Positions 2,635 through 38,696 of a DNA stretch of 64,000 bases are shown here, in pieces. Below the pieces are notes generated by a model. That model made no database searches. It worked only from the letters and a program-made list of their open reading frames with translations, and was not told the DNA's origin. The stretch's first letter is position 1; every line of letters begins with the position of its first letter. The DNA is from an uncultured Rubrobacteraceae bacterium (GTDB lineage: Bacteria > Actinomycetota > Rubrobacteria > Rubrobacterales > Rubrobacteraceae): the NCBI GenBank assembly GCA_902806085.1, contig CADCVH010000031.1, forward strand, positions 15,950 through 79,949, given 5' to 3'. Both the position numbers and the translations under genes were made by a program.

Positions 2635-2824
2635 AGGTTCTAGGTTTTGAGGTTCTAGGTTTTGAGGTTCTAGAGCGTTATGCAATGATATTGGACCCCC
2701 TGCGCGTTTCCGCGTCATGGAGAAGCGTTCCAGGAGCCCCGTACCCTCCCGGAGCTGTGCTTCGCGGCGAGCCTCGCGGGGGTGGGCCAACTCCATTGAC
2801 TACCGCTATAGAACCTAAAACCTT
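2635..2824. repeat. Intergenic element bounded by inverted AGG-7/8-mer arrays (copy 1)
   Basis: Left arm (aggttct aggttttg)x2 aggttctagagcg at 2635-2677; right arm cgctatagaacctaaaacctt ending at 2824 is its imperfect reverse complement. Confidence 0.8.
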
Positions 2825-3849
2825 CGATCCAACACCCACAGCGACGTGGCCGGCAGCCGGGCGGTCACTTCGTCGCCCACCGCGAGCCGGACGTGGGGGG
2901 GGAGTGCCGCGCGCAGGGTCGTGCCCGCGGCCCGCAGCTCGTAGTGGACCTGGGTCCCGAGGTACGAGGTTGAAGAGACCCGGGCGCGGAAGGAGTTCTC
3001 GCCCCCCTCCAGGCGGACGGCCTCGGGGCGGATGGTGAGGGTGACCTCTCCGGGAGGGGCGGTTCCCTCTAGCCTGAGGTCGCCGAGCGGGGTACGGACG
3101 GAGCCGTCGTTCGCCCGGCCGTCTATAAAGTTGGTGGCGCCGAAGAAGCGGGCGACCTCGCGGGTGGCGGGGCGGTCGTAGAAGGCCTCGGGACAGTCGT
3201 ACATCTGGAGTCGGCCGTCGAAGATGAGGGCGATGCGGTCCGCGAGGACGACGGCCTCTTCCTGGTCGTGCGTGACGAAGACGGTCGTGTGGCCGCCCTC
3301 GCGCTGGAGCCTGAGGACGAGGTCGCGCATCTCCTCCCTGAGGTTGGCGTCGAGCGCGCTGAAGGGCTCGTCGAGGAGCAGGAGCCGTGGCTCGGTGACG
3401 AGGGCGCGGGCGAGCGCGACCCTCTGCTGCTGGCCGCCGGAGAGCTCCCCGGGCGAACGGCCGGCGAAGCCCTCCATCCGCACGCGCCGGAGGGCCTCGT
3501 CCGCCTTCCTCCCGGCCTCCTCCTTGCGCGCGCCGCGCATTCTCAGGCCGAACCCGACGTTTTCGGTGACGCCCATGTGGGGGAAGAGGAGGGGCTTCTG
3601 GAAGACCATCGCCGCCTCGCGCCTCTCGGGCGGGGTGCCGACGACCGAGCGCCCGTCCACCCGCACGTCGCCGGCGGTCGGGCGCAAGAGGCCGGCGACG
3701 ACCTTGAGCGCCGTCGTCTTGCCGCACCCCGAGGGGCCGAGGAGGGCGACCAGCTCCCCCGGCTCGACGGCGAGGCTCAGCTTCTCCAGCGCGGGCGCGT
3801 CGTTGCCGTAGCGGTGGGAGACGTTCTCCAGTTCGAGGCGGGCGCTCAC
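2815..3849 (-). CDS. ABC transporter ATP-binding protein (PotA/YnjD-like, TOBE domain)
   Basis: Walker A GPSGCGKT, signature LSGGQQQR, LLLLDEP. GTG 3849 overlaps the upstream TGA (GTGA). The 588-aa ORF in the track is over-extended. Confidence 0.92.
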   Translation of the reverse strand: MSARLELENVSHRYGNDAPALEKLSLAVEPGELVALLGPSGCGKTTALKVVAGLLRPTAGDVRVDGRSVVGTPPERREAAMVFQKPLLFPHMGVTENVGFGLRMRGARKEEAGRKADEALRRVRMEGFAGRSPGELSGGQQQRVALARALVTEPRLLLLDEPFSALDANLREEMRDLVLRLQREGGHTTVFVTHDQEEAVVLADRIALIFDGRLQMYDCPEAFYDRPATREVARFFGATNFIDGRANDGSVRTPLGDLRLEGTAPPGEVTLTIRPEAVRLEGGENSFRARVSSTSYLGTQVHYELRAAGTTLRAALPPHVRLAVGDEVTARLPATSLWVLDRRF

Positions 3850-4658
3850 GAGAACTTCCCCGGTCCGACGAAGCCGCCCGCCCTCTCGCCCGGCTTCAGG
3901 ACGCGGAGGGCGAGCACGAGCGCAAGGACCGCGGGCAGGGCGAAGGCCAGGGCCAGGGCCGAGGTCACGACCGGGTCGTTGCCCGAGGCCGCCGAGAACA
4001 GGAGCATGGGCAGGGTGACGACGTTGCCGCCCCCGATCAGGAGCGTCAGCACGTACTGGCCCCAGGAGATCAGGAACGCGAACAGCCCTGCCACCGCCAC
4101 CCCCGGCAGGACACCGGGCAGCGTGACGCGCAAGAAAGCCTGCCAGGGGCTCGCGCCGAGGGTCCTGGCCGCCTCCTCCAGCTCGCCGGTCCTCTCGGCG
4201 AAGACGCCGGCCAGGATAAGGGCGGTGTAGGGCACCGTGGGGACCAGGTGGACGAGAAAGACGCCGGGAAGCGTGTCCGCGAGCCCGAGCCTGATAAAGG
4301 TGACGTGCACACCCATCGTCGAGGCCAGCGGGGGCACCAGGATCGGGAGCAAGATGAAGAAGATCACGACCCCCTTGAACCGCCACTGGTAGCCCCCTAT
4401 CGCCATCCCCGCCGGCATCCCTACGGCCACCGAGGCCGCCGCCGTCGCCGCCCCGATAAGGACGCTGTTGAGCGTCGCACCGAGCACCCCGCCGCCGGGC
4501 TCGACGAGGTGGGCCACCCCGCGCAGCGACCACGCGGTCGGCAGCAGGTCCGGGAAACGCCACTCCCCGGCGAAGGCCCACAGCGTCAGGGGCACGAAAG
4601 GCACCGCGACCAGCGCCGCCACGAGGGCGAGCCCGACGTTGCCCCCCTTCTTACCCAC
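3846..4658 (-). CDS. ABC transporter permease
   Basis: Multiple TM helices; EAA loop LEEAARTLGA; start set at GTG 4658, overlapping the previous stop. Confidence 0.9.
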   Translation of the reverse strand: MGKKGGNVGLALVAALVAVPFVPLTLWAFAGEWRFPDLLPTAWSLRGVAHLVEPGGGVLGATLNSVLIGAATAAASVAVGMPAGMAIGGYQWRFKGVVIFFILLPILVPPLASTMGVHVTFIRLGLADTLPGVFLVHLVPTVPYTALILAGVFAERTGELEEAARTLGASPWQAFLRVTLPGVLPGVAVAGLFAFLISWGQYVLTLLIGGGNVVTLPMLLFSAASGNDPVVTSALALAFALPAVLALVLALRVLKPGERAGGFVGPGKFS

Positions 4659-5508
4659 GGCGGCGCCCCAGGTCCCTGGCCAGCCGCAGGTACAGGGCCG
4701 CAATCGCGCCGGTGACGAGGGCGATGAGGATGTTGATCGCCATCGCCGTCGGCCTCGCGGCGAGGTCTATGCCCCTGTACTCGTCGTAGGCCATGACGGG
4801 CAGGATCGTCGGGTAGGACTTGCCGAGAAGGTAGGGCACCTCGAAGGCCCCGAACGTGAAGGCGAAGACCAGGAGGCTCGCCGCCACCACGGAGGGCGAG
4901 ATCACGGGGAAGACCACGTACCAGAACCGCTGCCAAGCCCCGGCCCCCAAAGTACGGGCAACGTCCTCGAGGTCCGAGGCCACCCCCCGCAACGCCGCGA
5001 GCATCACGAGCGTTATAAAAGGCACCTCCTTCCACACGTAGGTGAGGATGATGCCGACGGAGCGCTCGTCGTAGAGCAGGGCGGGGAAGTCCCCGGGCTC
5101 GCCGATCAGGCCTAGAAGGGCCGCCAGCCTCGCCCCGAGCCCCGTCTGCCCGACGACGAGCGCGATCCCGACGGCGGCGACGAGGTGGGGGATCGTGATC
5201 GGCAACTGGAACACCACCGCCGAGAGGCGACCGCTGGACCTCCTGAGCGCGAGCGCGGCGAGCACAGCCAGGACCGTGGAGACGCCCGTCGAGACCCCCG
5301 AGACGTACAGGGTGAGGACCAGCGAGTCGAAGAAGTCCTCGTCCGAGAGGATCCCGCGGTACGCGTCCAGCGTAAGCTCCGTCATGCCGATGGCCGGCAC
5401 GTAGCCCAAAGACTGCACGAACGCGATGACGAGCCCGCCCGCGAAGAGAACCCCGATCACGGCCAGGGCCGGGGCCAGAAGCAGCACGATCTTTAACCGC
5501 CCGCCCAA
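4651..5508 (-). CDS. ABC transporter permease (YnjC-like)
   Basis: Hydrophobic; EAA-like LEDVARTLGA; WKEVPF motif; operonic. Confidence 0.9.
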   Translation of the reverse strand: MGGRLKIVLLLAPALAVIGVLFAGGLVIAFVQSLGYVPAIGMTELTLDAYRGILSDEDFFDSLVLTLYVSGVSTGVSTVLAVLAALALRRSSGRLSAVVFQLPITIPHLVAAVGIALVVGQTGLGARLAALLGLIGEPGDFPALLYDERSVGIILTYVWKEVPFITLVMLAALRGVASDLEDVARTLGAGAWQRFWYVVFPVISPSVVAASLLVFAFTFGAFEVPYLLGKSYPTILPVMAYDEYRGIDLAARPTAMAINILIALVTGAIAALYLRLARDLGRRRG

Positions 5509-5511
5509 CCC

Positions 5512-6750
5512 CTAGTCCTCCAAGACCTCTTCCCGCCACCCCTCTTCGAGCCGGAGCAACCACTCCGTCCTGGCCTCGGGCACCCGGTTCTCCTGCAGGA
5601 CACGGGTCGGCAGCGTCGCTTTTCCTCGGGGCTCGGCGAACCCCCCGCGCGTCTCCTCCGGCAGCCGGTCCAGGCTCAGGGCGGTGAGGTCGCCCCAGCC
5701 TTCCGGGTCCTGCTTCTCCCTCTGGGCCTCGGGGCTCTGCAGGAAGTTCGCCGCGACCTGTGCTGCGGCCTTGTTCGGGGCGTTCGACGGGATGGCGAGG
5801 TAGTGGGTGTTGTTCAGGGTCCCGCCTTCGAGCACGTAGGAGCGGGTGCTCTTGGGGAAGAGGCCCTTGTCCACCTGGCGCTGGGCGAGCTGCGGGTTGT
5901 AGCTCATCGTGAGCCAGGTCTCCCCGTTCTGGTAGAGCTCGTCCAGCTTCGCCGAGGTCTCGGGGTAGGTCTCGCCCCCGCGCCAGAGGTTCGGCTCCAT
6001 GTCTTGCAGAAAATCGTAGAGCTTGGGGGCCTGTCCCTCGAAGACGGCCTCGTCGAACGGTTCCTGGTAGGGTTTGACCTGCCCGGTCACGTCGTAGAGG
6101 GCCTGCTCGACGAAGGCGTTGCCGGTGAAGTCCGGCGGGGCGGGGTAGGCGAAGCGGCCGGGGTTCTCCTCCGTCCACCTCTGGAGCTCGTCCATGGTTT
6201 TCGGGGGGTCATCGACCTTCGCGGAGTCGTAGATCATGACGAACTGGGCCTTGCCCCAGGGCGCCTCCCTGCCCTCGACCGGGTAGCCGAAGTCGCGGTT
6301 GATGGAGGGGCTCTCCCAGTCTATGTACTTCGCGTTCGGGAGTCCTTCCGCCCACGGGCCGAACCAGAGGCCCGCTTCCGCGCCGGTTGCGAAGTTCTCG
6401 CCGTTGATCCAGACGAGGTCTATCGTCCCCTCGTCCTTGCCGGCCTGCTTCTCGTTGAGCAGCTTGTTTACCGCGTCGGCCGTGTCGCCCAAGGGTGTGC
6501 GCGTCAGCCCTATGCCGTGCTTCTCCTCCAGTTTCGGGATGACGTAGTCGTCGACGTAGGCGTTGATCGCCCCGTCCCCGCCGTACATGGCGAGGTTGAC
6601 CTCCGTCCCCCGGGCCTGCTTCGCGAGCTGGGAGAAAGGCCGGGTTTCGCCGGAGGGCGCGTTCGCGCCGCCGGCCCCGCCGCAACCGGCGAGCGCGAGT
6701 ACCGCGAGCAGGGCGACGAGCAGAGGCTTTATGCGTCTTGAGGCAGGCAT
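5512..6750 (-). CDS. ABC substrate-binding lipoprotein (YnjB-like)
   Basis: Lipobox LAGC; DLVWINGENF, YPAPPDFTG, NTHYLAIPSNA segments resemble the YnjB family. Start set at ATG 6750. Confidence 0.8.
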   Translation of the reverse strand: MPASRRIKPLLVALLAVLALAGCGGAGGANAPSGETRPFSQLAKQARGTEVNLAMYGGDGAINAYVDDYVIPKLEEKHGIGLTRTPLGDTADAVNKLLNEKQAGKDEGTIDLVWINGENFATGAEAGLWFGPWAEGLPNAKYIDWESPSINRDFGYPVEGREAPWGKAQFVMIYDSAKVDDPPKTMDELQRWTEENPGRFAYPAPPDFTGNAFVEQALYDVTGQVKPYQEPFDEAVFEGQAPKLYDFLQDMEPNLWRGGETYPETSAKLDELYQNGETWLTMSYNPQLAQRQVDKGLFPKSTRSYVLEGGTLNNTHYLAIPSNAPNKAAAQVAANFLQSPEAQREKQDPEGWGDLTALSLDRLPEETRGGFAEPRGKATLPTRVLQENRVPEARTEWLLRLEEGWREEVLED

Positions 6751-6841
6751 GTCTATCACGATGTACCCCGCTTGGAAAGGTTTCACTATAAGAAGGCTTG
6801 CACGCCCGGATATACGCCGCGGGGTAGCGCCCGGATCAGAA

Positions 6842-7723
6842 CTACGCCCCGCCCGGCAGCCGCCCGAGCGCGTCCATGAGGCCCGAGATCACGCGCCCCT
6901 CGTCCAGGTCGGAGACCATCCCGACCTCGCGGCCGGTCTGCGAGTAGTCGTGCGAGCCGGCCGCGTCGAGCGTCGGGAGCGCCGTCCTCCGGACGGTAAC
7001 GGCCTCCGGGTCCGCGACGGCGGCGACGCAGGCTATGTCCCACAGGATCTTATCCCCCTCGGGGTCCACGTCCCCGCCGTACTCGATGACCCAGCGCTCC
7101 AGTATCTCCGCCAGGTAGGACGCGACGGGCCGCCCGAGCGCCCGCAGCTCCCCCGCGAAGGGCGCGGCCCGAACGCGCACCTTCGCCGGCGCGGGCCACC
7201 CGGGGACCAGGAGCATCTCCGTCCGGCCCTCGAAGAGGCCCCGCCAGGCGGCGATGTCCGCCCGGCCGTTCAGCTCCTGGAACTTGTGCCTCTCGTAGAC
7301 CCCCTTGCCCCCGAACCCGCCGAGCCAGACGACGCGCACGTTCTCCCGCGCCTCGGGTGCGGCGAGCAGGAGCGAGGCGGCGTCCGTCGCGGGCCCCGTC
7401 GCGACGACGGTGAGCGGGCCCCGCCGCGCCTCCTCGACCAAAAACTCCAGCCCCGCGCTCGGCACGAGGTCCTCGCGGTGCTCCATCGGCCTCTCCGCCC
7501 CCGGGATGCAAGGGACGCCGCCCCCGCACAGGCCGACGACCCTTTCGGCCTCTTCCTGGTACATGTCCCGCGAGCCGGGCCCGTGGGCGGTGGTGTTGTG
7601 CACGGAGACGACGCCGCGCACGTCGAGGGCGCCTTCGGGGAGGCCGAGGGCGTGGGCGATGGCGAACTGGTCGTCGACCTCGTTGGCCGTGTCGCAGTCG
7701 AGCACTACGCGCGTGGGTGGCAT
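6842..7723 (-). CDS. Nucleoside hydrolase (IUNH family)
   Basis: N-terminal DCDTANEVDD Ca-binding motif, TGPATD, ELN, LWD. Confidence 0.85.
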   Translation of the reverse strand: MPPTRVVLDCDTANEVDDQFAIAHALGLPEGALDVRGVVSVHNTTAHGPGSRDMYQEEAERVVGLCGGGVPCIPGAERPMEHREDLVPSAGLEFLVEEARRGPLTVVATGPATDAASLLLAAPEARENVRVVWLGGFGGKGVYERHKFQELNGRADIAAWRGLFEGRTEMLLVPGWPAPAKVRVRAAPFAGELRALGRPVASYLAEILERWVIEYGGDVDPEGDKILWDIACVAAVADPEAVTVRRTALPTLDAAGSHDYSQTGREVGMVSDLDEGRVISGLMDALGRLPGGA

Positions 7724-7830
7724 CGCTTCCTATCGTCGCGGGGATCGCGCGGATCGTAACACGGCGCCGCCGCGTGGGGTTTGTTGTGGTTCCCTTGCGG
7801 GCTGCTTGAATCCGCCCGCGACGGCCCGGG

Positions 7831-8814
7831 TCAGGAACCGAAGAGGTTCTCCAAGAACCCCGGTTCCAGATAGGTCCGGCTCCTTTTCAGCGTCTCCTCG
7901 TTGGCGATGGGCCGACCCTCCCGCGCCGTCTCCTGCAAAGCCCACGCGCACCACGAGACGGCCCGCAAGGAGACGATGGTCCTCATCGCCGCGAGCTGCT
8001 CGCCAAAACGCCTGACGTCCGCGACGGGATTCCGTTCCAGGTAAGCCCCGACAAACTCCCGCTCCTGCTCCCCGGAGAGGAGCGTCGCGGTGTCGTCGCG
8101 CCAGAGGGTCGTGGTCGGGAGGAGGAAGTGGGCGAGGTCCTGGGTGCGGGGGGCTATGCGCGCCTTCTCCCAGTCCAGGAGCTTCGCCTCGCCGTTCTCG
8201 ACGACGAAGTTGTGAGTGTTCAGGTCGTAGTTGACTATGGCGAGGCCGTCGCCGGTGAAGAGGTCACTCCTTTGGAGGAAGCCTTCTATGCGGCCGAAGC
8301 CCTTGAGGAGGGCGGCCTTGCTCTCCCCGGGGGCGCCGTCCCAGTCGAGGTAGGGTTCGGCCAGGCCGCGGGACTCTTCCAGGATGGCGGGGGCGGGGTC
8401 GGGGTGGGTCTGGAGCCGGTGCCCTTCCGGGACGCCGATGGCGTGGACGGCGGCGAGGCAGCGGGCGGCGGCGGGGAGGTCGGTGGCGTAGTCGAGGGGG
8501 CGACCCGGCAGGAACTCTTCCAGGACCAGGGGGTAGGGGAGGTCACCGGGGTCCGGGTCGACGTGGTAGGGCCTCGGGGTTACGCCGGAGGGGGCGAGGA
8601 GCGTCAGGGCGTGATGCTCGTAGGCGGCCTGCTCCCGGAGCGGGAGGCCCATCTGGGTGCCCGTCACGAGCCGGGCCACGAGGTCCGGGTCGCCCCGCAC
8701 GAGGTAGTTGAGGCTGTACTCACCGCGGGCGAGAAACTCGACGCCGCGGTGGGGCGGGTGCGGCGGGCTTTCCAGGTAGCGTTCCACGTCGGCGCTAAAG
8801 CTCTCGTCCGGCAC
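7831..8814 (-). CDS. Aminoglycoside phosphotransferase / choline-kinase-like protein
   Basis: RGEYSLNY N-lobe, Brenner-like NYDLNTHN, DWE. GTG 8814 lies 6 nt after TACAAT (leaderless-like). Confidence 0.8.
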   Translation of the reverse strand: MPDESFSADVERYLESPPHPPHRGVEFLARGEYSLNYLVRGDPDLVARLVTGTQMGLPLREQAAYEHHALTLLAPSGVTPRPYHVDPDPGDLPYPLVLEEFLPGRPLDYATDLPAAARCLAAVHAIGVPEGHRLQTHPDPAPAILEESRGLAEPYLDWDGAPGESKAALLKGFGRIEGFLQRSDLFTGDGLAIVNYDLNTHNFVVENGEAKLLDWEKARIAPRTQDLAHFLLPTTTLWRDDTATLLSGEQEREFVGAYLERNPVADVRRFGEQLAAMRTIVSLRAVSWCAWALQETAREGRPIANEETLKRSRTYLEPGFLENLFGS

Positions 8815-10354: not shown

Positions 10355-10391
10355 AAACGCCGCAACGCCCGACGCCTGGTGCGGATGCAAC

Positions 10392-17166: not shown

Positions 17167-17376
17167 AGGTTCCAAGGCTTAAGGCTTTGAGGTTTTGGGT
17201 CATCGGGCTTTAGCTTTCGGGTCGTTGTGGCAAATATTGGCCGCTAAAGACTAAGCCGGTTACGCCAAGGTTGCAAACGGGGTTCGCGCCTCAGGCGCGT
17301 CCCGATGTCCGGCACCCGTCTCCAAAACCTCAAAACCTCTAGCCTCAAAACCTCAAAGCCTTAAAACCTTGAACCT
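17167..17376. repeat. Intergenic element bounded by inverted AGG-7/8-mer arrays (copy 2)
   Basis: Left arm aggttcc aaggctt aaggctttg aggttttg ggtcatcgg; right arm caaaacct caaaacct ctagcct caaaacct caaagcct taaaacct tgaacct (7 units). Confidence 0.8.
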
Positions 17377-17398
17377 GCGCTGCTACAATCCCACACCT

Positions 17399-17695
17399 AT
17401 GACGGACGCGGAGAGACAGGCGAAGGTTCAAGAGCTTCGGGAGCGGGTCGACGAGGTGGATCTGGAGTTGATCCGCGCCTTGAGCGAGCGGGCGCAGATC
17501 GTCCAGGACCTCGCCCGGATAAAGTTCGAGGCCGGGGTACCCATCTTCGACCCCAAGCGCGAGGAAGAGATCTTGCGGAGGGTCGTCGAGCAGAACCCGG
17601 GCCCGATCTACGACTCCTCCATGCGCGAGATCTTCGAGCTGATCCTGCACCGCATCCGCGACCTTGAGATACAACGCGGGGAGTTTCAGAGGTAG
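17399..17695 (+). CDS. aroQ: Monofunctional chorismate mutase (AroQ)
   Basis: LRERVDEVD..L...L.ERA, K, P.REEE.L; ATG 9 nt after TGcTACAAT. Confidence 0.88.
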   Translation: MTDAERQAKVQELRERVDEVDLELIRALSERAQIVQDLARIKFEAGVPIFDPKREEEILRRVVEQNPGPIYDSSMREIFELILHRIRDLEIQRGEFQR

Positions 17696-23002: not shown

Positions 23003-23698
23003 ATGGCCACCGACGGGCTGAAGCGCGACGCAGCGAGCGCGGCCGTGGACCGTTTCGTCGAGGACGGGGCCACGCTCGGCCTCGGCTCCGGCACCACCTC
23101 CGCCTTCGTGGTCGGCAGGATCGGCGAGAAGCTCGCCGCCGGGGAGCTCCGGAACGTGCGCGGCGTCCCGACCTCCGAGAGCACGGCCGCCCTCGCCCGG
23201 GAGGCCGGCATCACGCTCGTCGGCCTCGCGGAGGCCCGCCCCACCCTCACGCTCGACGGGGCCGACGAGATCGGGCCCCGCCTCGCCAACATCAAGGGCC
23301 TCGGCGGCGCCCTCCTGCGCGAAAAGATAGTCGCCGCCGCCTCGCGCGACGGCCTCGTCCTCGTGGCCGACGGCTCGAAGGCGGTCGACACTTTGGGTGC
23401 CCGCGGCCCGCTCCCCGTCGAGGTCGAACCCTTCGGCTGGGAGACGACCTTCGAGGCCCTCTCCTCGTTGGGCTGCACGCCGAGGCTCAGGATGGACGCC
23501 ACCGACCCCGGGCGTCCCTTCGTCACCGACGGCGGCCACTACACGGCCGATTGCGCCTTCGGCCCGATAGAGGACCCGCCCGGCCTCGAAGCCGCCATCA
23601 AGGCCATACCCGGCGCCCTCGAGTGCGGCCTCTTCGTAGGGCTGGCGCGGGCGGCCGTGATCGCCGATAGGGACGGTGTCCGGGTGGTCGAAGGGTAG
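23003..23698 (+). CDS. rpiA: Ribose-5-phosphate isomerase A
   Basis: GLGSGTT, DGADEI, KGLGGALLREK, VTDGG.Y..D. Confidence 0.95.
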   Translation: MATDGLKRDAASAAVDRFVEDGATLGLGSGTTSAFVVGRIGEKLAAGELRNVRGVPTSESTAALAREAGITLVGLAEARPTLTLDGADEIGPRLANIKGLGGALLREKIVAAASRDGLVLVADGSKAVDTLGARGPLPVEVEPFGWETTFEALSSLGCTPRLRMDATDPGRPFVTDGGHYTADCAFGPIEDPPGLEAAIKAIPGALECGLFVGLARAAVIADRDGVRVVEG

Positions 23699-23732
23699 GT
23701 TCGAGGCCCCAGGTTCGAGGCCCCAGGTTTCG
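23697..23732 (+). repeat. Solo arm of AGG-heptamer tandem array
   Basis: aggttcg aggcccc aggttcg aggcccc aggtttcg, starting inside the rpiA stop codon. Confidence 0.65.
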
Positions 23733-31340: not shown

Positions 31341-32762
31341 GCGGTCAAAGAGACCAGAGAGCCGCGCGCGTTCCCCGGTCTCCTCCGGATAGAGACCCGG
31401 CGCGGCGTGGCGCTGCTTCTCTCGCCCTTCATCCTCGCGGCTGCGTGGTGGATGGCCTGGTACGGGACGTACGGATCGATGATCGAGCCGGGCTTTAGCG
31501 GCGCGTACATCTGGGAGGAGACTAGCCGGGTCGTAAAGGACAGCATCCTGACGACCGGACCGTTGGCGGCGGGGATAGCGGCCTGGGTGGCGGGACGCAA
31601 CCGGCGGCGCGGCGTGGGGGACCTTCTTTCGACCACCGCCCTACCCGGGGCCCGGCGGGAACTCTTTACCTGGACCGGTGCCGCGCTGCCCTTCGTGGGG
31701 ATCTACCTGGGCCTGGTCGTGCTGCTCGGCGTGCCGACCGCCATCAACGCGACCTGGGGGACGCCCATCTTCGGCTACATCCTCGTCGGCCTCGTCGCCC
31801 TGCTGTGGGACTCGGCTTTGGGCTTCGCGGCGGGCTACTGGCTGCCGAGCCGCTTCACCGCGCCGCTCGTCGCCGTAGCCCTGTACGTGGCCCACCTCCT
31901 CCCGATGGGCGCCTCGGACTACGACAGCGGCGTCGGCCTGCTCTCCCCGGCCGCCTACAGCAACATGTCGGGCGCCGACGTCTTCCACGAGGCGCCGCCC
32001 ATCGCGGCGCAGCAGATCATGCTCTTCGGCGGCCTCGCCGCCGCGGCGCTCGCGTCCGTGGCTGTTCGGGCCGGCGCCCGGCGGGCGGGAAGGATCTCGC
32101 TCACGGTCGCGCTTCCCGTAGCCGCCGGCGGCCTCGTCGCCGCCCTCATGTCCGGTAACCCGTACGGGTTCAACGCGGCGGAGGCGGAGCCGGTACCGTT
32201 CGAGTACGTCTGCGAGGGAGGCGGGATCACGGTCTGCGTCCACCCCGCCTACTCGAAGCTGCTCCCCGAGACGACGACAGCGGTGAACCGGGTCGCCGAA
32301 CCGCTCGTCGGCGTAATCGGGGCCCCCACGCGCGCGGTGCAGATAGACCACTACATGACGCCGAAGGACTTCGAGAAAGGAACCGCCACCTTCGGATACG
32401 TCGGCGACGAGGCGAAGTTCGATGTGGCCTACAGTCTGGTTGCGGACGAAGCGACGATGGAGGAGCTCGCGTCGACCGGAAAAGAAGAAGGGTTCACCAA
32501 GGAAGACGTACGGGTATGCGGTGGTTCCCCCCCGAGGAGGTTTTTCTCTCCTTCATACGAGGCCCAGTCGGTGGTGGGCGATTGGCTTCTGGCCCGCAGC
32601 GGTGGAAAACTCCCCCCTCGGGGCTCTACCGGCGACTGTCCCAACGCTGAGGACCTCATCGAGGGGTTCGCGGCCCTGGATCCCGCCGAGCGCCGGGCGT
32701 GGCTCGACGAGAACCTGGCAGACCTGCGCGCAGGCCGCGTCTCGCTGGACGACCTACCGTGA
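31314..32762 (+). CDS. Putative ABC permease-like membrane protein with C-terminal extracytoplasmic domain
   Basis: Many TM helices, then a soluble Cys-containing domain; operonic with the ATPase. Confidence 0.7.
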   Translation: MNVNANVNAAVKETREPRAFPGLLRIETRRGVALLLSPFILAAAWWMAWYGTYGSMIEPGFSGAYIWEETSRVVKDSILTTGPLAAGIAAWVAGRNRRRGVGDLLSTTALPGARRELFTWTGAALPFVGIYLGLVVLLGVPTAINATWGTPIFGYILVGLVALLWDSALGFAAGYWLPSRFTAPLVAVALYVAHLLPMGASDYDSGVGLLSPAAYSNMSGADVFHEAPPIAAQQIMLFGGLAAAALASVAVRAGARRAGRISLTVALPVAAGGLVAALMSGNPYGFNAAEAEPVPFEYVCEGGGITVCVHPAYSKLLPETTTAVNRVAEPLVGVIGAPTRAVQIDHYMTPKDFEKGTATFGYVGDEAKFDVAYSLVADEATMEELASTGKEEGFTKEDVRVCGGSPPRRFFSPSYEAQSVVGDWLLARSGGKLPPRGSTGDCPNAEDLIEGFAALDPAERRAWLDENLADLRAGRVSLDDLP

Positions 32763-33397
32763 GGTTAGCGGCGTTGTTCCTGCGCTCCCGGCGCGCCGGG
32801 ACGGCCGTCATGATCCTCGCGGGAACGGCGGCCGTCTGCTGGGTCCTGACGTGGTGGCTCTTCTCGCAGACGCCCTACGGTGCGGCGCGCGGCGGCCTGA
32901 GCCTGACCCTAGTCTTCGGGAGCCTGGCCGCGTCCTGCGTGGTGGGCGCTGGCGCCGCATCTCCCTTTGGCGACGCCGAACGGACCTCCGCCAGGCCGCT
33001 CGCGCCGGCACGTTTCCTGCACTTCTCCGGGCTGCTTCTCCTGTCTTCGCTCGTCCTCTGCTGCGTCTTGCTGCTCATCGACCTTACCGGTGCGCGGCCG
33101 GAACACCCCCTGCTCGTGCTCGTCCGCAACGTGGCGGCCCTGGGTGGACTCGCTCTGCTCTCCGCGAGGCTGGTCGGGGCCCGACTCTCCTGGATACCCC
33201 CGTTCGTCTTCTCCATCGGCTACCTCACGGCTATGGGCACCGGCAGCGACCTCCTCTCCGCCTTCGTCAACCGGTCCCACGACGGCCTGCACGGCCCCTC
33301 CTGGATCGCGGCGCTCCTCATGCTCGTCGCGGGCCTGGGGCCGGTCTGCGCGCGGGGCGCGCGGGAGAGGGTGGGCAAGACCGAGGAAAGCCCGTAG
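32759..33397 (+). CDS. Hypothetical membrane protein (second permease-like subunit)
   Basis: About 6 TM helices; GTG 32759 overlaps the previous TGA. Confidence 0.65.
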   Translation: MRLAALFLRSRRAGTAVMILAGTAAVCWVLTWWLFSQTPYGAARGGLSLTLVFGSLAASCVVGAGAASPFGDAERTSARPLAPARFLHFSGLLLLSSLVLCCVLLLIDLTGARPEHPLLVLVRNVAALGGLALLSARLVGARLSWIPPFVFSIGYLTAMGTGSDLLSAFVNRSHDGLHGPSWIAALLMLVAGLGPVCARGARERVGKTEESP

Positions 33398-33563
33398 CCC
33401 GGCTCGAGACGAAGAGGGGAGGGTTATAAATCGAGGGGCATTGCTCCAATGCTTGAGGTCGACGTTATCCACCTCGCCGCCCACGCCTACGGGCCCGGTG
33501 GCGACCATTCGGGAGCGGGCGCCTCCATCGACGGCCCCTGGAACTTTTGTTTCTCTCTTCGAA

Positions 33564-34631
33564 CTACCCGCCCCAGGTCGCGCGCAAGACCCGCAGCCAG
33601 TTCTCGTGCGCGAGCTTCCGTAGCTCCGTTTCGCCGTAGCCGCGCCCTTCCAGGGCGGCCAGTAGCTTCGGCAACCCCGAAACGTCGCCGATGGTCTCCG
33701 GCACCTTCGCCCCGTCGAAGTCCGAGCCGAAGCCCACGCGGTCGATGCCAACCCGGTCGACGAGGTGGTCCACGTGGCGCACGAGCGTCTCGAGCGGGGT
33801 GTTTGCGTCGTCGCGGCCGTCCTCGCGCAGAAACGAGACCGCGAAGTTCAGGCCGACCATGCCGTCGGAGGCCCGGATGGCGTCTAGCTGGCGGTCGGTG
33901 AGGTTGCGCGGGGTGGGGCAGAGGGCGTGGGCGTTCGAGTGGGTCGCGACGAGCGGGGCGTCCGAGAGGCCTGCCACGTCCCAGAAACCCCTCTGGTTGA
34001 GGTGGGAGAGGTCGATCAGAACGCCAAGCCGGTTGCACTCCCGGACGAGGCTACGTCCCGCTTCGGTCAGGCCGGGGCCCGTATCGGGGGAGCCCGGAAA
34101 CCGGAACGGGACGCCGTACGCGTAGGCGTTGGGCCGGCTCCACACGAGCCCGAGAGAGCGCAGGCCGAGACCGTAGTGTTCTTCGAGCGCACCAGGGTCG
34201 GGACCCAGGTTCTCCGCGCCTTCGAAGTGGAGGATGGCGGCCACGACGCCCTCGTCCAGGCAATCCCGAATCTCCGCCGCCGTCCTGACGACCTTGAGCC
34301 GGCCCCCGGACTCGCCTTCGAGCCGGAAGAGCAGGGACGCCATCGCGTCCGCAAAACCGCGGGCGTATTCGGGGTCGAGCGGCGGGGAACCCGCGACCTC
34401 GTAACCGTCTTCCGTTATCTTGAGCGCCGACTCCTCCGTCCAGCCGGCCTTCGGGTTCGGGGGCGCGAAGCAGGCGAAGAACCCCCCGCCGAAGCCGCCT
34501 TCGAGGGCGCGAGGAAGGTCCACGTGGCCGACATCGCCCTTCTCGAAGAAATCGCGGCCTCTGCCACGGTTGCGGAGCAGGAGGTTCAGCAGCGTGTCGT
34601 TGTGGCCGTCGAAGACGGGTACGCGGTCCAT
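33564..34631 (-). CDS. Membrane dipeptidase (M19) family
   Basis: DGHND, HFEGAE, DLSH, SHS-like ATHSNA, RNLTD, GSDFDG; ATG 7 nt after TATGAT. Confidence 0.92.
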   Translation of the reverse strand: MDRVPVFDGHNDTLLNLLLRNRGRGRDFFEKGDVGHVDLPRALEGGFGGGFFACFAPPNPKAGWTEESALKITEDGYEVAGSPPLDPEYARGFADAMASLLFRLEGESGGRLKVVRTAAEIRDCLDEGVVAAILHFEGAENLGPDPGALEEHYGLGLRSLGLVWSRPNAYAYGVPFRFPGSPDTGPGLTEAGRSLVRECNRLGVLIDLSHLNQRGFWDVAGLSDAPLVATHSNAHALCPTPRNLTDRQLDAIRASDGMVGLNFAVSFLREDGRDDANTPLETLVRHVDHLVDRVGIDRVGFGSDFDGAKVPETIGDVSGLPKLLAALEGRGYGETELRKLAHENWLRVLRATWGG

Positions 34632-34672
34632 TCGCCCGATCATACAGAACTACCCGTTGGGCGCCACGAGAG

Positions 34673-34698
34673 GGCGGGGCCGCCGAAGCGGCCCCGCC
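34673..34698 (-). terminator. 11-bp hairpin with UUCG tetraloop after moeZ
   Basis: ggcggggccgc-ttcg-gcggccccgcc on the minus strand. Confidence 0.65.
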
Positions 34699-34717
34699 AA
34701 CAACATCTGAAACCTCT

Positions 34718-35902
34718 CTAGTACTTCGGGACGCTCGGGTCGATCTCCTCGCTCCAGGCGGTGATGCCGCCCTTGACGTTGTAGACGTTCGTAAAGCCGG
34801 CGTCCTGCAGGAGCTTGACGGCCTTGGCGCTCCGCCCGCCGGTCTTGCAGTGGATGGCGAAGTTCTCGCTCTGGTCGAACTCCGCGAGGCGCTGCGGCAA
34901 TTCGCCCAGGGGCACGAGCTTCACGCCGATGTTCGCGACCTCGTACTCGTGCGGCTCGCGCACGTCGAGCACGTTGATGTCCTCGCCGTTGTCCAGCTTG
35001 CCCTTGAGGTCCTTGACCGTGATCTCCGGCACGCCGTTGTTCTCTTCGGCGGCGTTGGCCTGCGGGATGCCGCAGAACTCCTCGTAGTCGATGAGCCCGG
35101 TGACGGTCGGGTTCTCGCCGCAGATGGGGCAGTTCGGGTCCTTGCGCAGCTTCATCTCGCGGAAGCTCATCCCGAGGGCGTCGTAGAGCATCAAGCGGCC
35201 GATGAGCGGCTCGCCTATGCCCAGGATCAGCTTGACGGCCTCCGTCGCCTGGATCACCCCTATCGCGCCGGGGAGGATGCCAAGGACCCCGCCCTCGGCG
35301 CAGGAGGGAACCAGGCCGGGCGGCGGGGGCTCGGGGTAGAGGCAGCGGTAGCAGGGGCCTTCCTCGGCCCAGAAGACGCTCGCCTGGCCCTCGAAGCGGA
35401 AGATCGAGCCGTAGACGTTCGGCTTGCCGAGCAGGACGCAGGCGTCGTTCACGAGGTACCGCGTCGGGAAGTTGTCCGTGCCGTCCACGATCACGTCGTA
35501 GTCGCGGAAGATCTCGAGCGCGTTCTCGCTGGTCAGCGCCTCCTCGTGGACCACAACCTCGACGTTGGGGTTGATGTCCTTGATCTTGTCGCGGGCGCTC
35601 TCGACCTTCGGGCGCCCAACGTCCGAGGTGCCGTGGATGATCTGGCGCTGCAGGTTCGACTCGTCGACGACGTCGAAATCGACGATCCCGATGGTCCCGA
35701 CCCCGGCCGCCGCCAGGTACAGCGCGAGCGGGCTGCCGAGGCCGCCCGTGCCGACGGTGAGGACCCTGGCGGCCTTGAGCTTCTTCTGCCCGTCGAGGGC
35801 GACCTCGGGCATGATGAGGTGGCGGCTGTAGCGGGCTATCTCTTCGTTGGAGAGATCGACAGCCCCGTTGGGCGACTGCACTAACGGTTCGCGCGTCTGC
35901 AT
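34718..35902 (-). CDS. moeZ: ThiF/MoeB adenylyltransferase-rhodanese fusion
   Basis: RYSRH, GTGGLG, SNLQRQ, CYRC, PSCAEGGVLG, CPIC, rhodanese HCKTGGRS. Confidence 0.93.
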   Translation of the reverse strand: MQTREPLVQSPNGAVDLSNEEIARYSRHLIMPEVALDGQKKLKAARVLTVGTGGLGSPLALYLAAAGVGTIGIVDFDVVDESNLQRQIIHGTSDVGRPKVESARDKIKDINPNVEVVVHEEALTSENALEIFRDYDVIVDGTDNFPTRYLVNDACVLLGKPNVYGSIFRFEGQASVFWAEEGPCYRCLYPEPPPPGLVPSCAEGGVLGILPGAIGVIQATEAVKLILGIGEPLIGRLMLYDALGMSFREMKLRKDPNCPICGENPTVTGLIDYEEFCGIPQANAAEENNGVPEITVKDLKGKLDNGEDINVLDVREPHEYEVANIGVKLVPLGELPQRLAEFDQSENFAIHCKTGGRSAKAVKLLQDAGFTNVYNVKGGITAWSEEIDPSVPKY

Positions 35903-35953
35903 GTTATGAAAACCTCTTTGTAGGGAGTTACGGGTGAAAGACGGGGCGCGGGC

Positions 35954-36247
35954 CTAGAGACATCGCCCTTCGGACACACCACCGGCTATGGATGGAATTA
36001 TGGAGAGCTCGTCCGCGTCGGCGACCTCGGTGTCGGGGCCGTCGAGGTAACGGATGTCCTCGTCGCCCTTGTACACGTTGACGAACGAGCGCAGCTTGCC
36101 GTCGCCGGTGTAGAGGTGTTGCTTGAGGTCCGGGTACTCGGTGGCGAGGTTGCCGAGGGCGTCGCCCGCGGTGCCGCCGCCGACCTCGACCTGCGACTCC
36201 CCGCCGGTGTACTGCCTCAAGGGCGTTGGGATCTTGACCTTCGGCAT
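35954..36247 (-). CDS. cysO: MoaD/ThiS/CysO ubiquitin-like sulfur carrier with C-terminal extension
   Basis: IPTPLRQYT, FVNVY....DIRYL.G, IIPSIAGG followed by VSEGRCL. Confidence 0.85.
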   Translation of the reverse strand: MPKVKIPTPLRQYTGGESQVEVGGGTAGDALGNLATEYPDLKQHLYTGDGKLRSFVNVYKGDEDIRYLDGPDTEVADADELSIIPSIAGGVSEGRCL

Positions 36248-36265
36248 AATATTCTCCTCTTTCTC

Positions 36266-36685
36266 TTAACCTACGATGGTCTCTTCGTCGTAACCGGAAC
36301 GGTCATCCTGGAGCAGCCACGAGCGCATGTCTTGCACGCTCTCCTTGCCGACGGAGGCTATCACGTAAGAGTAGCCGGGCCAGGCGTGGTCCCGGTCGTA
36401 CTCGGACGGCTCCGCCGGGTGGTCCGGGTGGGAGTGGTAGAAACCGAGCACGCCCATCTCCCGCTCCTCGGCCCGGTCTTCGTACTCCTTGATCTTCGAA
36501 GGCTCGATCAAAAAGCGCCTGGACCGCTCCTCCTCGTGGGTGTTCTCCGCCCGCCACACGTCGACGACGACCTTCGTCCCGCCCGCGTCTATGCCCACGA
36601 GCGCCCCGGCGCACTCCTCTGGGTACGCCTCGAGCGCGTGCTCGTGGATCCTCTCGACGTCCCCCGCGCCTATCTTGAGGGCCAC
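36266..36685 (-). CDS. mec: JAMM/MPN+ (M67) metallopeptidase
   Basis: YPEEC.G and HSHPDHPAEPSEYD (HxH-x7-S-x2-D); GTG 36685 with GGAGG SD. Confidence 0.92.
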   Translation of the reverse strand: MALKIGAGDVERIHEHALEAYPEECAGALVGIDAGGTKVVVDVWRAENTHEEERSRRFLIEPSKIKEYEDRAEEREMGVLGFYHSHPDHPAEPSEYDRDHAWPGYSYVIASVGKESVQDMRSWLLQDDRSGYDEETIVG

Positions 36686-36686
36686 G

Positions 36687-37610
36687 CTAGTCCTCCCAGA
36701 AGCTCTCTGAGAGGTACTTGTCTGCCCCATCGCACAGGATGGTGACGACCGTGCCGGACTCTATCTCCCGGGCGACCTGCAGCGCCGTCGCGACGGCCGC
36801 GCCCGCCGAGATGCCGATGAGGACGCCCTCCTCGCGCGCGACGCGCTTGACCATCTCGTAGGCGTCCTCGGTGGCGGTGGCGCGGTTTTCATCGGCGACG
36901 GTGGGGTCGTAGATGGTGGGCACGATGGCGCTCCCCATGTGCTTCATCCCCTCCAACCCGTGAAACGCCCCGTCCGGCTCGAACGAGACGACCCGTATCT
37001 CCGGGTTGAACTCTTTGAGCCGCGTCGAAGTACCGACGAACGTCCCGCTGGTGCCGAGGCCCGCGACGAAGTGCGTGACCTCGCCGCCGGTCTCTTCCCA
37101 AATCTCGGGCGCCGTGCTCTCGTAGTGGGCCCTCGGGTTGGCCGGGTTGGAGTACTGGTCGGGGTAGAAGTACCGCTCCGGGTCCTCGGCGTAGAGCCGC
37201 CGCGCCTCCCTGATGGCCCCGTCGGAGCCCTCGCCCGGGTCCGTGAGCACGAAGTCCACGCCGTACGCCCTGAGGATCTTCTTGCGCTCCTCGCTGGCGT
37301 TCTTGGGCATGCACAGCTTGACCTTGTAGCCTAAAGCGGCCCCGATCCAGGCGTAGGCGATCCCGGTGTTCCCGCTCGTGGCGTCGAGGATGGTCTTCTG
37401 CGGCGTGAGCGCGCCGCTCCTCTCGCCGTCCCGGATCATCCACAAAGCGGGCCGGTCCTTGACGGAACCCCCCGGGTTGTACCACTCGGCCTTGCCCAGT
37501 ATCCGCACCCCGGGCGTCTCCGCCGCGATGGCAGGCAACTCCAAAAGCGGGGTGTTGCCCACGAGATCCGTCACGTTCTTCCCGACCTGTTTGTTAATCC
37601 GAGTAATCAT
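36687..37610 (-). CDS. cysM: PLP-dependent cysteine synthase (CysM type)
   Basis: GNTPL, NPGGSVKDR, ATSGNTG, GLGTSGT, GISAGA. Confidence 0.9.
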   Translation of the reverse strand: MITRINKQVGKNVTDLVGNTPLLELPAIAAETPGVRILGKAEWYNPGGSVKDRPALWMIRDGERSGALTPQKTILDATSGNTGIAYAWIGAALGYKVKLCMPKNASEERKKILRAYGVDFVLTDPGEGSDGAIREARRLYAEDPERYFYPDQYSNPANPRAHYESTAPEIWEETGGEVTHFVAGLGTSGTFVGTSTRLKEFNPEIRVVSFEPDGAFHGLEGMKHMGSAIVPTIYDPTVADENRATATEDAYEMVKRVAREEGVLIGISAGAAVATALQVAREIESGTVVTILCDGADKYLSESFWED

Positions 37611-37774
37611 GTCGGGATTGATTATACAGTGTGATGAAGGGGCGTCCAGAGAGGGCGAGAACCAACAAACAAAAATAGCCGGGCGGCCAAAATAACGGCC
37701 TCCCGGCTGTGGTTGGTGCGTTGTCCGGAATTGTACCGGAGGCCCCCTTTACAAATCTACAGCGAAATCGCGAA

Positions 37775-38497
37775 TTATCCCAAAGCGTCCAGAATTTCCC
37801 CCAGGGTTCGGCGCCGGCAGGTAAAGATGGGGGTGTCGAGCTCGGTGTAGGAGGAGGCCTCGCTCTCCCGAAGCTCCATCATCAGGTCCTGGAACTTCTC
37901 GGGGCTCTCCGCCTCGAACGACAGTATGAACTCCCAGTCGTCTATCCCGAAGCAGTAGGCGGTGTTGTTCTTCACCGGGTAGTGCTTGCGCCCTATCCTC
38001 ATGTGCTCGTCCATCATCCTTTGGCGCTCGTCCAGCGGCAGGCGGTACCAGGCCCGCGTCTTGACGAACGGGTAGACGAAGATGAACTCCCCCTCCCCGG
38101 GCACTATGTAGCGGCGGTTCTCCCAGCCCGGCGTGTGCTCCCCGACGTAGATGGAACGCCTGCTCAGGCCGAAGTAGGAGTGGGAGACCGTCAGGTACTT
38201 GCCCAGGCCGCTTCGCATCAGGGCGCTTTGCAGGCCCTCGAAGGCGTCGAGGTCGTAGCCTATCTTCCAGATCATGAAGTCCGCGTCGGCCCTGAGCCCC
38301 ATCAGGGAGAACGAGCGCAGGAGCATCTCCCCGCCGTGCTCCTCGGCGGCCGCGAGGAACTCCCCCTTGCCCCGCTCGCGCTCCTCCTCCGGCAGGCGGC
38401 GCCAGAGGGGGTCGAGCTTGAAGAAGGCGTAGTTGACGTACTGGGCGGGAAGCTTGTCTTCTTGCGCCTCCTGCTGGCGTGGCCTCGTTTCGGTCAT
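37775..38497 (-). CDS. Chlorite dismutase / coproheme decarboxylase (ChdC/HemQ) family heme protein
   Basis: YPFVK...WY.L...R..M..H, then GIDDWEF, L...L...E, TPIF. Confidence 0.8.
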   Translation of the reverse strand: MTETRPRQQEAQEDKLPAQYVNYAFFKLDPLWRRLPEEERERGKGEFLAAAEEHGGEMLLRSFSLMGLRADADFMIWKIGYDLDAFEGLQSALMRSGLGKYLTVSHSYFGLSRRSIYVGEHTPGWENRRYIVPGEGEFIFVYPFVKTRAWYRLPLDERQRMMDEHMRIGRKHYPVKNNTAYCFGIDDWEFILSFEAESPEKFQDLMMELRESEASSYTELDTPIFTCRRRTLGEILDALG

Positions 38498-38516
38498 CGT
38501 CTCTCCCTTCGTCGAA

Positions 38517-38696
38517 AGGCTCTGAGGTTTTAGGTTCTAGGTGGTTCTAGGTACAAGGTTTTGGGTCGTCGGTGAGAACCACGCGCGCCCGCGCTACCTG
38601 CCTTGCGGCTCGTGCCAGGCTACCGTTGCTCCTGTTTCTCATCTTTTCCCTTGAGCCTAGAACCTTAAAGCCCCAAAACCTCAAGCCTTGAGGCCT
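38517..38696. repeat. Intergenic element bounded by inverted AGG-7/8-mer arrays (copy 3)
   Basis: Left arm aggctctg aggtttt aggttct aggt ggttct aggtaca aggttttg ggtcgtcgg; right arm tgagcct agaacct taaagccc caaaacct caagcct tgaggcct. Confidence 0.8.

Follow-up and report, generated by a model that had tools for sequence, protein, structure and literature searches.

The stretch of DNA analysed here (64 kb of contig CADCVH010000031.1 from an uncultured Rubrobacteraceae bacterium, hereafter the window) raises the question of what three short sequences bounded by inverted arrays of AGG-initiated heptamers are, and how they came to stand between its genes. They are named E1 (2635-2824), E2 (17167-17376) and E3 (38517-38696). 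The original prediction had taken them for a non-autonomous mobile family or one resembling repetitive extragenic palindromes (REP) or short repetitive sequences in tandem (STRR) and, recalling heptamer arrays that flank four-helix-bundle genes in other bacteria, had suggested that they could be empty copies of an undescribed element. On balance, the prediction was essentially right, and E1-E3 appear to be members without an open reading frame (ORF) of a dispersed, STRR-like fold-back family, the ORF-bearing members of which are cassettes with a gene of the four-helix-bundle family PF05635.

The three elements were found where they had been placed, with inverted arms, and they hold the only clusters of AGG units in the window. 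The motif AGGYTYTNAGG occurs eight times in the window, all eight times inside E1-E3, against an expectation of 0.29, and none of 100 shuffles reached eight. In a looser scan for AGG-Y-T-Y-T/A units, clusters were present on the plus strand at 2635-2671, 17175-17196 and 38517-38538, on the minus strand at 2810-2823, 17324-17376 and 38652-38665, and nowhere else in the 64 kb, the forward cluster lying left of the reverse one in all three elements. The units, AGG-Y-T-Y-T with sometimes an additional G, have few fixed positions and are contiguous 7-8-mers, for which Tandem Repeats Finder gave periods of 7, 8 and 15. Inverted symmetry extends over arms of 56 nt in E1 (71%), over 31-34 nt in E2 (82-87%) and, in E3, over three segments of 12-16 nt (88-93%). 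Either strand reads 5'-(AGGNNNN)n ... (NNNNCCT)n-3', from which an imperfect stem of 20-35 bp can form; in RNA folds the arms pair more stably than dinucleotide shuffles (z = -3.3 for E1, -5.1 for E2 and -5.0 for E3), so that the proposed folding check came out in favour of the elements. Two finer details of the prediction were also correct, namely the common inner boundary aggttttgggtc(a/g)tcgg of E2 (at 17190) and E3 (at 38556), and the prolongation of both E1 arms as aggttcta(g/t)agcg.

The cores had been described as unrelated, lower in GC and without a clear ORF. They show no similarity to one another or to the four-helix-bundle cassettes; their GC content is 59-63%, compared with 31-51% in the arms and 68.8% in the window, and they are therefore merely mildly GC-poor. 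Core ORFs of 33-45 amino acids (aa) gave no Pfam match, and an Rfam scan of the whole window at the gathering threshold returned a tRNA-Ser alone, with nothing in the cores and no rRNA. The view that the elements are neither CRISPR arrays nor ordinary terminators was upheld: the 7-8-nt units are contiguous, without spacers, and form inverted arrays, E1 and E2 contain no terminator-like site, and E3 is read through in RNA.

Copies enclosing an ORF were looked for in relatives, and PF05635 genes were found between inverted arrays. The remembered association thus holds in a Prevotellaceae metagenome-assembled genome (MAG), in Pseudoalteromonas and in actinobacterial relatives. Genes of this family lie between arrays of AGG-inward polarity at L047, L090, L124, L210, L218, L229 and L233 (our numbers for the loci compared). 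In the Prevotellaceae MAG (L047), AGGTTTT/AGGCTTT arrays enclose a 132-aa ORF scoring 130 bits on PF05635, and in Pseudoalteromonas shioyasakiensis about 24 AGGTTCT units are followed by a PF05635 gene and then by a CCTAGCN/CCTATNA array. Locus L124, whose HemQ is 91% identical to that of the window, has, immediately 3' of a tRNA-Ser gene that is syntenic with the tRNA-Ser of the window, a PF05635 gene of 122 aa (118 bits); the arms of this cassette consist of GCTGAAAG/GCTGACAAG units mixed with small GC hairpins, its outermost inverted repeat is GCTCCTCCCTTCGGTCGTCGC / GCGACGACCAAAGGGAGGAGC, and Rfam found only the tRNA in the cassette region. When four more loci were picked by protein similarity alone (L210, L218, L229 and L233), the gene lay between AGC-type arrays of the same polarity in 4/4, in the contexts NlpC/P60-sortase, hypothetical-TenA, STAS-STAS and beside a T2SSE ATPase gene. 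Counting L124, inverted arrays thus bound 5/5 PF05635 genes obtained from actinobacterial relatives by protein similarity. The NlpC/P60-sortase and hypothetical-TenA cassettes (L210 and L218/L225) belong to one MAG, GCA_013816955.1, and are about 87% identical over about 445 nt from arm to arm; the similarity stops at the outer arm ends, and the sequence beyond is unrelated. The cassette is about 0.45-0.7 kb long and has PF05635 as its sole gene; besides the actinobacterial relatives, at least two other phyla have it. Its units in the actinobacterial cassettes are of the AGC type, like those that fill the E3 and E2 sites in relatives; those of L047 are AGGTTTT/AGGCTTT, as in the window.

One PF05635 query protein has at least 7991 relatives, and those of the L124 protein are almost always on contigs under 4 kb, as would be expected of repeats that break assemblies. 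By exact protein matches, the window itself belongs to biocrust assemblies in ENA. Contigs (not reads) from biocrust metatranscriptomes and metagenomes, in four RNA and four DNA runs, were matched to the elements and to the L124 cassette. On this cassette the arms had a depth of 3000-6800, the flanks 200-900 and the ORF 0. Joins that skip the ORF and lead from left arm to right arm were present in 4/4 DNA runs, with many flanks, and an empty tRNA site was also present, at which the DNA joins straight from the tRNA to the downstream sequence.

Several observations were made beside these cassettes. In the window, on the minus strand 3' of the tRNA-Ser gene (41526-41617), positions 41470-41526 contain CTCCCCCCTTCGGCCGCCG...GTTCAGCC, which resembles the left terminus CTCCTCCCTTCGGTCGTCGC of the L124 cassette and, judged by this resemblance, may be a cassette remnant at the syntenic tRNA site. 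Past the L124 cassette, at L124:1845-2235, a conserved terminator-like hairpin AAAAGAGGGCCGG...CCCTCTC stands beside a small ORF (about 66 aa, MTMMIQHEKTREVTRED...) of the opposite strand; the homologous region of the window is at about 40905-40985 and downstream on that side. Over this ORF, the depth of RNA contigs from the biocrust metatranscriptomes goes up to 88,000 and exceeds that of the neighbours hundreds of times; Rfam gave no match to the hairpin or the small ORF in this region. The same hairpin with CTCGTGAAGGGGGATGGACAGCCC comes after single arrays in L127, L162 and L164. The cassette at L229:360-830 lies between two STAS-domain genes beside an HATPase_c_2 gene (a Pfam domain call only); the frame of the upstream STAS gene continues into the left arm, and past the right arm come CCGACCGAAGGGAGG and the start codon (ATG) of the next STAS gene.

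The presence/absence polymorphism looked for among relatives was found at two orthologous sites. The E3 site was compared in 79 metagenome loci encoding HemQ relatives at 77-92% identity, the counts being of loci with the aldo-keto reductase (AKR) gene upstream; the HemQ and HisC relatives carry the names Rubrobacteraceae or Rubrobacter. The element is absent in 15 relatives, in which AKR and HemQ are 24-36 nt apart with the end ...NFGLEPARR* and an overlapping Shine-Dalgarno AGGAGG. In about 40 relatives the site is occupied by an insert of 69-215 nt, all of the fold-back layout, and two relatives have a spacer but no clear array. Unit types differ between the occupied sites: AGGTTYT in the window and L126, AGGCTTC in L129, L136 and L193, AGCCGTC/AGCGGTC in L125, L133, L143 and L185, AGCAGTC/AGCATGTC in L127, L128 and L131, AGCNGTT in L124, and TCAGTTN in L175. 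Whatever the unit type, the right arm is the complement of the left arm of the same genome. Fold z values of these inserts go down to -10, and that of L127 is a nearly loop-less hairpin of 100 nt (z = -8.8). The AKR frame in occupied relatives continues into the left arm to the first stop. Homogenisation of the unit type throughout a genome was considered and rejected, as L128, L144 and L164 each combine an AGC-type site with an AGG-type site.

At the E2 site, relatives with HisC at 82-88% identity (L204-L207) have arms around a core with the conserved motifs CCCCGTTTGCAAC and GGCTTAGTCTTTA; L204 has AGC-type arms and the other three have AGG-type ones. A further relative, L208 (HisC 79% identity), has no arrays at this site and an ordinary Shine-Dalgarno before hisC. 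The target duplications that had also been envisaged were not present at the occupied compared with the empty E3 junctions. A third site has an array of a different kind: downstream of a ThiF/MoeB-rhodanese gene, a single array AGGCTAC AGGTTTC AGGCATC AGG is followed by a GC-rich terminator hairpin, with no reverse arm (L128:8007-8028, L136:7470-7490, L139:3778-3799, L144:5976-5997 and L157:4912-4932). Since five relatives share it, solo arrays exist and are conserved at the ThiF site.

The polarity of the arrays is the same well beyond these sites. Arrays were counted by chains of units, a k-mer stem finder being too noisy in DNA of 69% GC and a stricter tandem/inverted detector too strict. 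In 707 kb of Rubrobacteraceae DNA, 32 pairs were AGG-inward versus two reversed (shuffles, 0-3 of each), and about 56 arrays were counted in 621 kb of relatives versus 0.6 in shuffles. A scan for three consecutive AGGTTYT-type units, with one genome per species, gave at least 119 loci, including Bacteroidota, Cyanobacteria, Gammaproteobacteria, Acidobacteriota, Hyphomicrobiaceae and Patescibacteria. Among the matches listed, the cyanobacteria with such arrays are Chamaesiphon, Moorena and Trichodesmium, and 13 loci were AGG-inward with a core of 24-128 nt versus one reversed; examples are a Pyrinomonadaceae locus with a 54-nt core and a Hyphomicrobiaceae locus with a 40-nt core. The constant feature is an inward AGG (or AGC) every 7 nt and no particular heptamer. 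A possible reason for the polarity rule could be that a C-rich arm, if transcribed first, would expose a Rho loading site. Ordinary genes, too, are flanked by AGG-inward arrays in Chamaesiphon and in one MAG each of Selenomonadaceae and Sangeribacter (L023:3303-4507, L032:5786-7186, L077:2703-4321 and L085:2137-3966). The genes so flanked are a LysR regulator, dnaJ, a glycosyltransferase, and an esterase with a metallo-beta-lactamase-fold gene, and, at least at L077, each flanking side is itself a small hairpin.

The biocrust contigs further showed how the elements are transcribed. RNA contigs with 0-1 mismatches cross AKR-E3-HemQ in four metatranscriptomes. E2 and its immediate flanks had zero RNA coverage in any run, with the chorismate mutase/DAHP synthase genes just downstream at a depth of 150-1400, which indicates that the E3 signal in RNA is not DNA carry-over. 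E1 was spanned by one RNA contig in one run, and short, deep RNA contigs match its left arm and then unrelated sequence, which points to other expressed copies; further arm copies with other flanks appear as loose ends in both DNA and RNA contigs. The DNA depth of the flanking genes was in the hundreds to thousands (many related strains), compared with 11-109 for the exact E3 contig, and this fall in depth inside E3 shows that the element is strain-specific.

All three elements lie at gene boundaries: E1 between the convergent genes of a NUDIX hydrolase (stop at 2629) and an ABC-transporter ATPase, E2 between the divergent genes of a hisC-like aminotransferase (ATG 17165) and chorismate mutase (ATG 17399), and E3 between two minus-strand genes, those of AKR and HemQ (ATG 38497). 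The description as intergenic was correct in this respect; however, the stop codons of the ATPase and of AKR are inside arms and the hisC ATG abuts an arm, so that the elements are not cleanly intergenic, and the C-terminus of the reductase (AGLKA*) is encoded by the right arm of E3. The E1 core has no ORF with a Pfam match and no terminator-like or promoter-like site. A promoter scan of the elements gave only the TTAAAA/TACAAT site at chorismate mutase; with TTAAAA in the right arm of E2 and TACAAT 10 nt from the ATG, the arm would supply the -35 hexamer and the chorismate mutase mRNA would be nearly leaderless. The sequence CTACAATCC at the chorismate mutase start region (17384-17401) is kept in relatives. 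The E2 core, with conserved motifs of its own, is probably the native divergent promoter/operator region. Motifs of sigma-54 or other promoters in the cores were unconvincing on inspection by eye. The hisC-like gene has no Shine-Dalgarno in the array-bearing genomes and AAGGAG...GGAG in the array-less L208.

Behind the right arm, the 13-mer CGACCGAAGGGAG occurs at HemQ sites and at the PF05635 cassettes of the unrelated loci L229 and L124. It was rejected as a general terminus of the elements, as it also precedes HemQ in the array-less L158, and the motif may therefore be partly locus-specific or native. At HemQ sites and at L229, the cistron downstream uses the strong Shine-Dalgarno CGACSGAAGGGAG that comes after the right arm. 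A putative ORF of 31-45 aa in the E3 core (38547-38684, minus strand) is preceded by AAGGGAAAAG, and its N-terminal half is partly kept in L126 (MRNRSNGSLARAARQVARAR vs VKNRSHGRSTEAARQVSRAR). Elsewhere in the window, at 23697-23729, a perfect 14-nt tandem repeat, AGGTTCGAGGCCCC x2.4, lies at an ORF end and opens with an AGGTTC unit; it is GC-rich and unpaired and probably unrelated to the elements.

Positions of the arms, cores and signals of E1, E2 and E3 in the window
Feature	Positions	Strand	Units or motif	Remark
E1 left arm	2635..2677	+	AGGTTCT AGGTTTTG AGGTTCT AGGTTTTG AGGTTCT AGAGCG	begins 6 nt past NUDIX stop codon (2627-2629)
E1 core	2678..2805	.		outer parts prolong palindrome
E1 right arm	2806..2830	-	AGGTTTT AGGTTCT ATAGCGG, read on - strand	holds ABC-transporter ATPase stop codon (2815-2817)
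E2 left arm	17167..17198	+	AGGTTCCA AGGCTTA AGGCTTTG AGGTTTTGG	1 nt from hisC-like aminotransferase ATG (17165, - strand)
E2 core	17199..17321	.	taaagactaagcc (17245-17257), gttgcaaacgggg (17270-17282)	motifs kept in relatives
E2 right arm	17322..17376	-	AGGTTCA AGGTTTTA AGGCTTTG AGGTTTTG AGGCTAG AGGTTTTG AGGTTTTGG, seven units on - strand	
Promoter-like site	17361..17389	+	TTAAAA - 17 nt - TG-TACAAT	TTAAAA inside E2 right arm; end 10 nt before chorismate mutase ATG (17399)
Shine-Dalgarno motif	38503..38514	-	CGACGAAGGGAG	between E3 arm and HemQ ATG (38497)
E3 left arm	38517..38565	+	AGGCTCTG AGGTTTT AGGTTCT AGGTGGTTCT AGGTACA AGGTTTTGG	promoter-distal arm of AKR-HemQ mRNA
E3 core	38566..38651	.		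homologous to core of relative L126; 31-45-aa ORF without family match
E3 right arm	38652..38696	-	AGGCCTCA AGGCTTG AGGTTTTG GGGCTTTA AGGTTCT AGGCTCA AGG, on - strand	holds AKR stop (38681-38683)

Several results weigh against regarding E1-E3 as gene-less members of a family with PF05635 cassettes. No target-site duplication or insertion footprint was seen between occupied and empty E3 junctions, and insertion or deletion at this site is therefore not established. A single hairpin insertion explains E2 poorly, its core being native promoter DNA. No PF05635-like ORF or remnant was found in the window; when the cores were tried as decayed four-helix-bundle genes by blastn-short and by an unfiltered hmmsearch of six-frame translations, only the arms matched. 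The 32 AGG-inward pairs are not all independent, many being copies of a single orthologous site, and solo arrays without a partner arm occur, e.g., downstream of ThiF in five relatives. Two PF05635 genes of other phyla that were fetched by chance (L109 and L025) have no convincing array pair, so the association of arrays with PF05635 is not universal. Of the RNA processing that the prediction had raised, nothing could be seen at the level of contigs (not reads), those over the elements showing no processing joints or sites. Finally, we know of no recombinase or nuclease activity of PF05635 proteins.

Other explanations have to be weighed against the same results. One might fear that the pattern is an artefact or that something ordinary was misread (similarity by chance, a chimeric assembly, the remnant of a CRISPR array, an intrinsic terminator), since the source is a metagenome assembly, repeats can break assemblies and contig L004 ends inside an arm. 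This explanation is refuted, with hardly any probability left to it: the sequence is identical in independent assemblies and samples, with sibling contigs identical through E2 and E3, exact contigs cross E3 in four runs each of DNA and RNA, one DNA run has such a contig across E2, the motif count was reached by 0/100 shuffles, and there is neither a 25-40-nt repeat/spacer structure nor a stem with a T-run in E1 or E2. Purely local simple-sequence repeats (SSR), i.e., in-place slippage at gene boundaries with pairs as a by-product, nothing mobile and PF05635 genes merely situated in repeat-rich DNA, could account for the single arrays without a partner, for the native promoter DNA between the E2 arms and for the arrays beside ordinary genes (LysR regulator, dnaJ, glycosyltransferase) in cyanobacteria, Selenomonadaceae and Sangeribacter, and heptamer SSRs are indeed over-represented and hypervariable in bacteria (PMC4692102; Xanthomonas loci for multiple-locus variable-number tandem-repeat analysis, PMC6459536). 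Slippage alone, however, predicts neither a fixed AGG-inward polarity (32:2 in the lineage and 13:1 among the matches listed) nor the complementarity of the arms across unit changes, and it leaves unexplained why the homology of the cassettes at two unrelated loci of one MAG stops precisely with the arrays and why the same arms are joined without an ORF at many flanks; we regard it as unlikely.

The elements could also be host-selected regulatory structures kept for their function and not as selfish or neutral DNA, such as mRNA-processing or stabilising hairpins (RNase III sites as in rRNA intervening sequences), protein-bound arrays or quadruplex DNA by which promoters and translation starts are tuned. 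Their stems are far stabler than shuffled sequence and E3 lies within the AKR-HemQ transcript in four metatranscriptomes, but the E2 arms are complementary yet untranscribed, and the RNA contigs contain no processing joints. A role at gene starts and ends would agree with arms that hug start and stop codons, with the -35-like hexamer that the E2 right arm is predicted to supply for chorismate mutase, with the strong Shine-Dalgarno after the right arm at several loci and with the TAACTGA heptamers just upstream of Beggiatoaceae start codons, which were proposed to be regulatory (PMC4679880). On the other hand, 15 relatives do without the E3 element and L208 without the E2 arrays, and the unit sequence differs between orthologues, which argues against a sequence-specific binding protein. 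As the units have two consecutive G at most, a canonical quadruplex is not possible. Selection for regulation is thus a possible explanation of the elements, though in our opinion not a probable one.

If E1-E3 are gene-less relatives of the PF05635 cassettes, as preferred here, their history might be as follows. The arrays would lengthen and shorten by slipped-strand mispairing. Because the E2 arms co-vary around an untranscribed promoter, it would chiefly be in the DNA that the arms are kept alike, through template switching within the molecule or through conversion in the hairpin. The ORF-less hairpins could be relics of PF05635 cassettes or homologous landing pads for them, exchanged by recombination in the arms; the lack of target duplication and the end of cassette homology within the arms point in this direction. 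In operons, the stem may be tolerated or even useful, behaving by analogy like an rRNA intervening sequence: the first arm holds the end of the upstream ORF, the second has a strong Shine-Dalgarno (CGACSGAAGGGAG) behind it, and the long double-stranded RNA hairpin would insulate or stabilise the two cistrons and might be a target of RNase III. The notion of empty copies of an undescribed element fits the ORF-less state and the cassette-type arms; it fits less well in that the kind is already partly described (Xanthomonas pairs and STRR) and that the cores hold no gene remnant.

A wider proposal, which we put forward tentatively and consider doubtful, is that inverted heptamer arrays and PF05635 genes are two halves of one cross-phylum mobile system. 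The fold-back arms would be both the recombination or recognition substrate and an RNA-level insulator, the Avd-like protein would bind the arrays, and hairpins without an ORF, E1-E3 among them, would serve as landing pads or be non-autonomous copies; this could account for STRR/heptamer SSR pairs, for rRNA intervening sequences and for the role of PF05635. PF05635 four-helix-bundle proteins are among the commonest unexplained small genes, and to our knowledge neither they nor heptamer repeats have an accepted function. If arrays do bound PF05635 cassettes and persist without the gene, then STRR/heptamer SSR pairs, rRNA intervening sequences and the Avd relatives outside diversity-generating retroelements would become one testable system. 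In practice, the elements break short-read assemblies, arm-encoded tails are added to upstream proteins, and arms are predicted to be able to supply -35 boxes and ribosome-binding sites to neighbouring genes.

[quoted passage not shown] Like REPs, the bacterial interspersed mosaic elements (BIMEs) and MITEs, E1-E3 are small, dispersed, intergenic and hairpin-forming, and such elements are often co-transcribed with flanking genes. They differ from REP/BIME in that their arms are AT-richer tandem heptamers (31-51% GC), and from MITEs in their unrelated cores and the lack of a duplication at occupied compared with empty junctions. Of the proposed mobile or REP/STRR-like family, therefore, the STRR-like dispersal, with further copies at other flanks, has stood, and the likeness to REPs and MITEs has not. 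The Foldback (FB) transposons of Drosophila have long inverted arms of tandem 10-31 bp repeats, a loop that is absent or gene-bearing, and greatly varying lengths; they resemble the elements in architecture only, being eukaryotic, with far longer arms and their own transposase-linked biology.

The rRNA intervening sequences are closer in gene content. PF05635 was named after ORFs in 23S rRNA intervening sequences and is related to Avd, a protein of diversity-generating retroelements; such sequences with a PF05635 ORF were reportedly described by Ralph and McClelland in 1993 in Leptospira and Coxiella. A 23S rRNA intervening sequence has a long stem of inverted termini, its loop may hold a PF05635 gene of about 120 aa, and the stem can be handled at the RNA level. 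Like the fold-back family, it is a stem-enclosed loop tolerated in a transcribed region; unlike it, E1-E3 lie between protein genes, with no rRNA in the window and no ORF, and we know of no intervening-sequence stems described as heptamer arrays. The cassettes also differ from diversity-generating retroelements, the context of Avd, as no reverse transcriptase was called near them, their neighbours being NlpC/P60, sortase, TenA and STAS genes and a tRNA.

The STRR heptamers of cyanobacteria were reportedly described by Mazel and colleagues in 1990, and Vioque is said to have found them within the gene for RNase P RNA in 1997. They are usually described as direct arrays and as characteristic of heterocystous cyanobacteria. 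They share with the E1-E3 family that they are dispersed heptamers in intergenic and transcribed regions, with several units within one lineage; the inverted-pair rule is outside their definition, and their host is not of the Actinomycetota. The TAACTGA heptamers of Beggiatoaceae and cyanobacteria are nearly all direct, in one orientation to the downstream gene, with one inverted case (MacGregor 2015, PMC4679880); they resemble E2 in being intergenic arrays that end a few nt from a start codon, as the E2 left arm does at hisC.

The nearest parallel is in Xanthomonas. Heptamers are the most over-represented long SSRs in bacteria. It was reported that the GGGAATC/(GGGANTN)n heptamers occur about 185 times per genome, 89-93% of them intergenic near gene ends; 70-75 pairs in each genome are convergent and could fold into stem-loops or cruciforms. 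Sister species differ in the length and sequence of these repeats but agree in their type, be it a single array or a pair (Rehm et al. 2015, PMC4692102). E1-E3 likewise have tandem heptamers with some fixed positions in convergent pairs. They differ in unit, in phylum and in the GGG runs, which E1-E3 lack, so that the quadruplex model by which PMC4692102 frames the Xanthomonas heptamers is not applicable. More generally, the AGGTTYT/AGGCTTT units of the window and the AGCNNTC types of its relatives match none of the described families (GGGAATC; CCCCAGT, TTGGTCA, CAACAGT). The Xanthomonas paper makes no link to PF05635 and no comparison of empty and occupied sites, and literature searches gave no paper joining heptamer arrays to a PF05635 gene. 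Convergent heptamer pairs have thus already been described, and it is their link to a PF05635 cassette that appears to be new.

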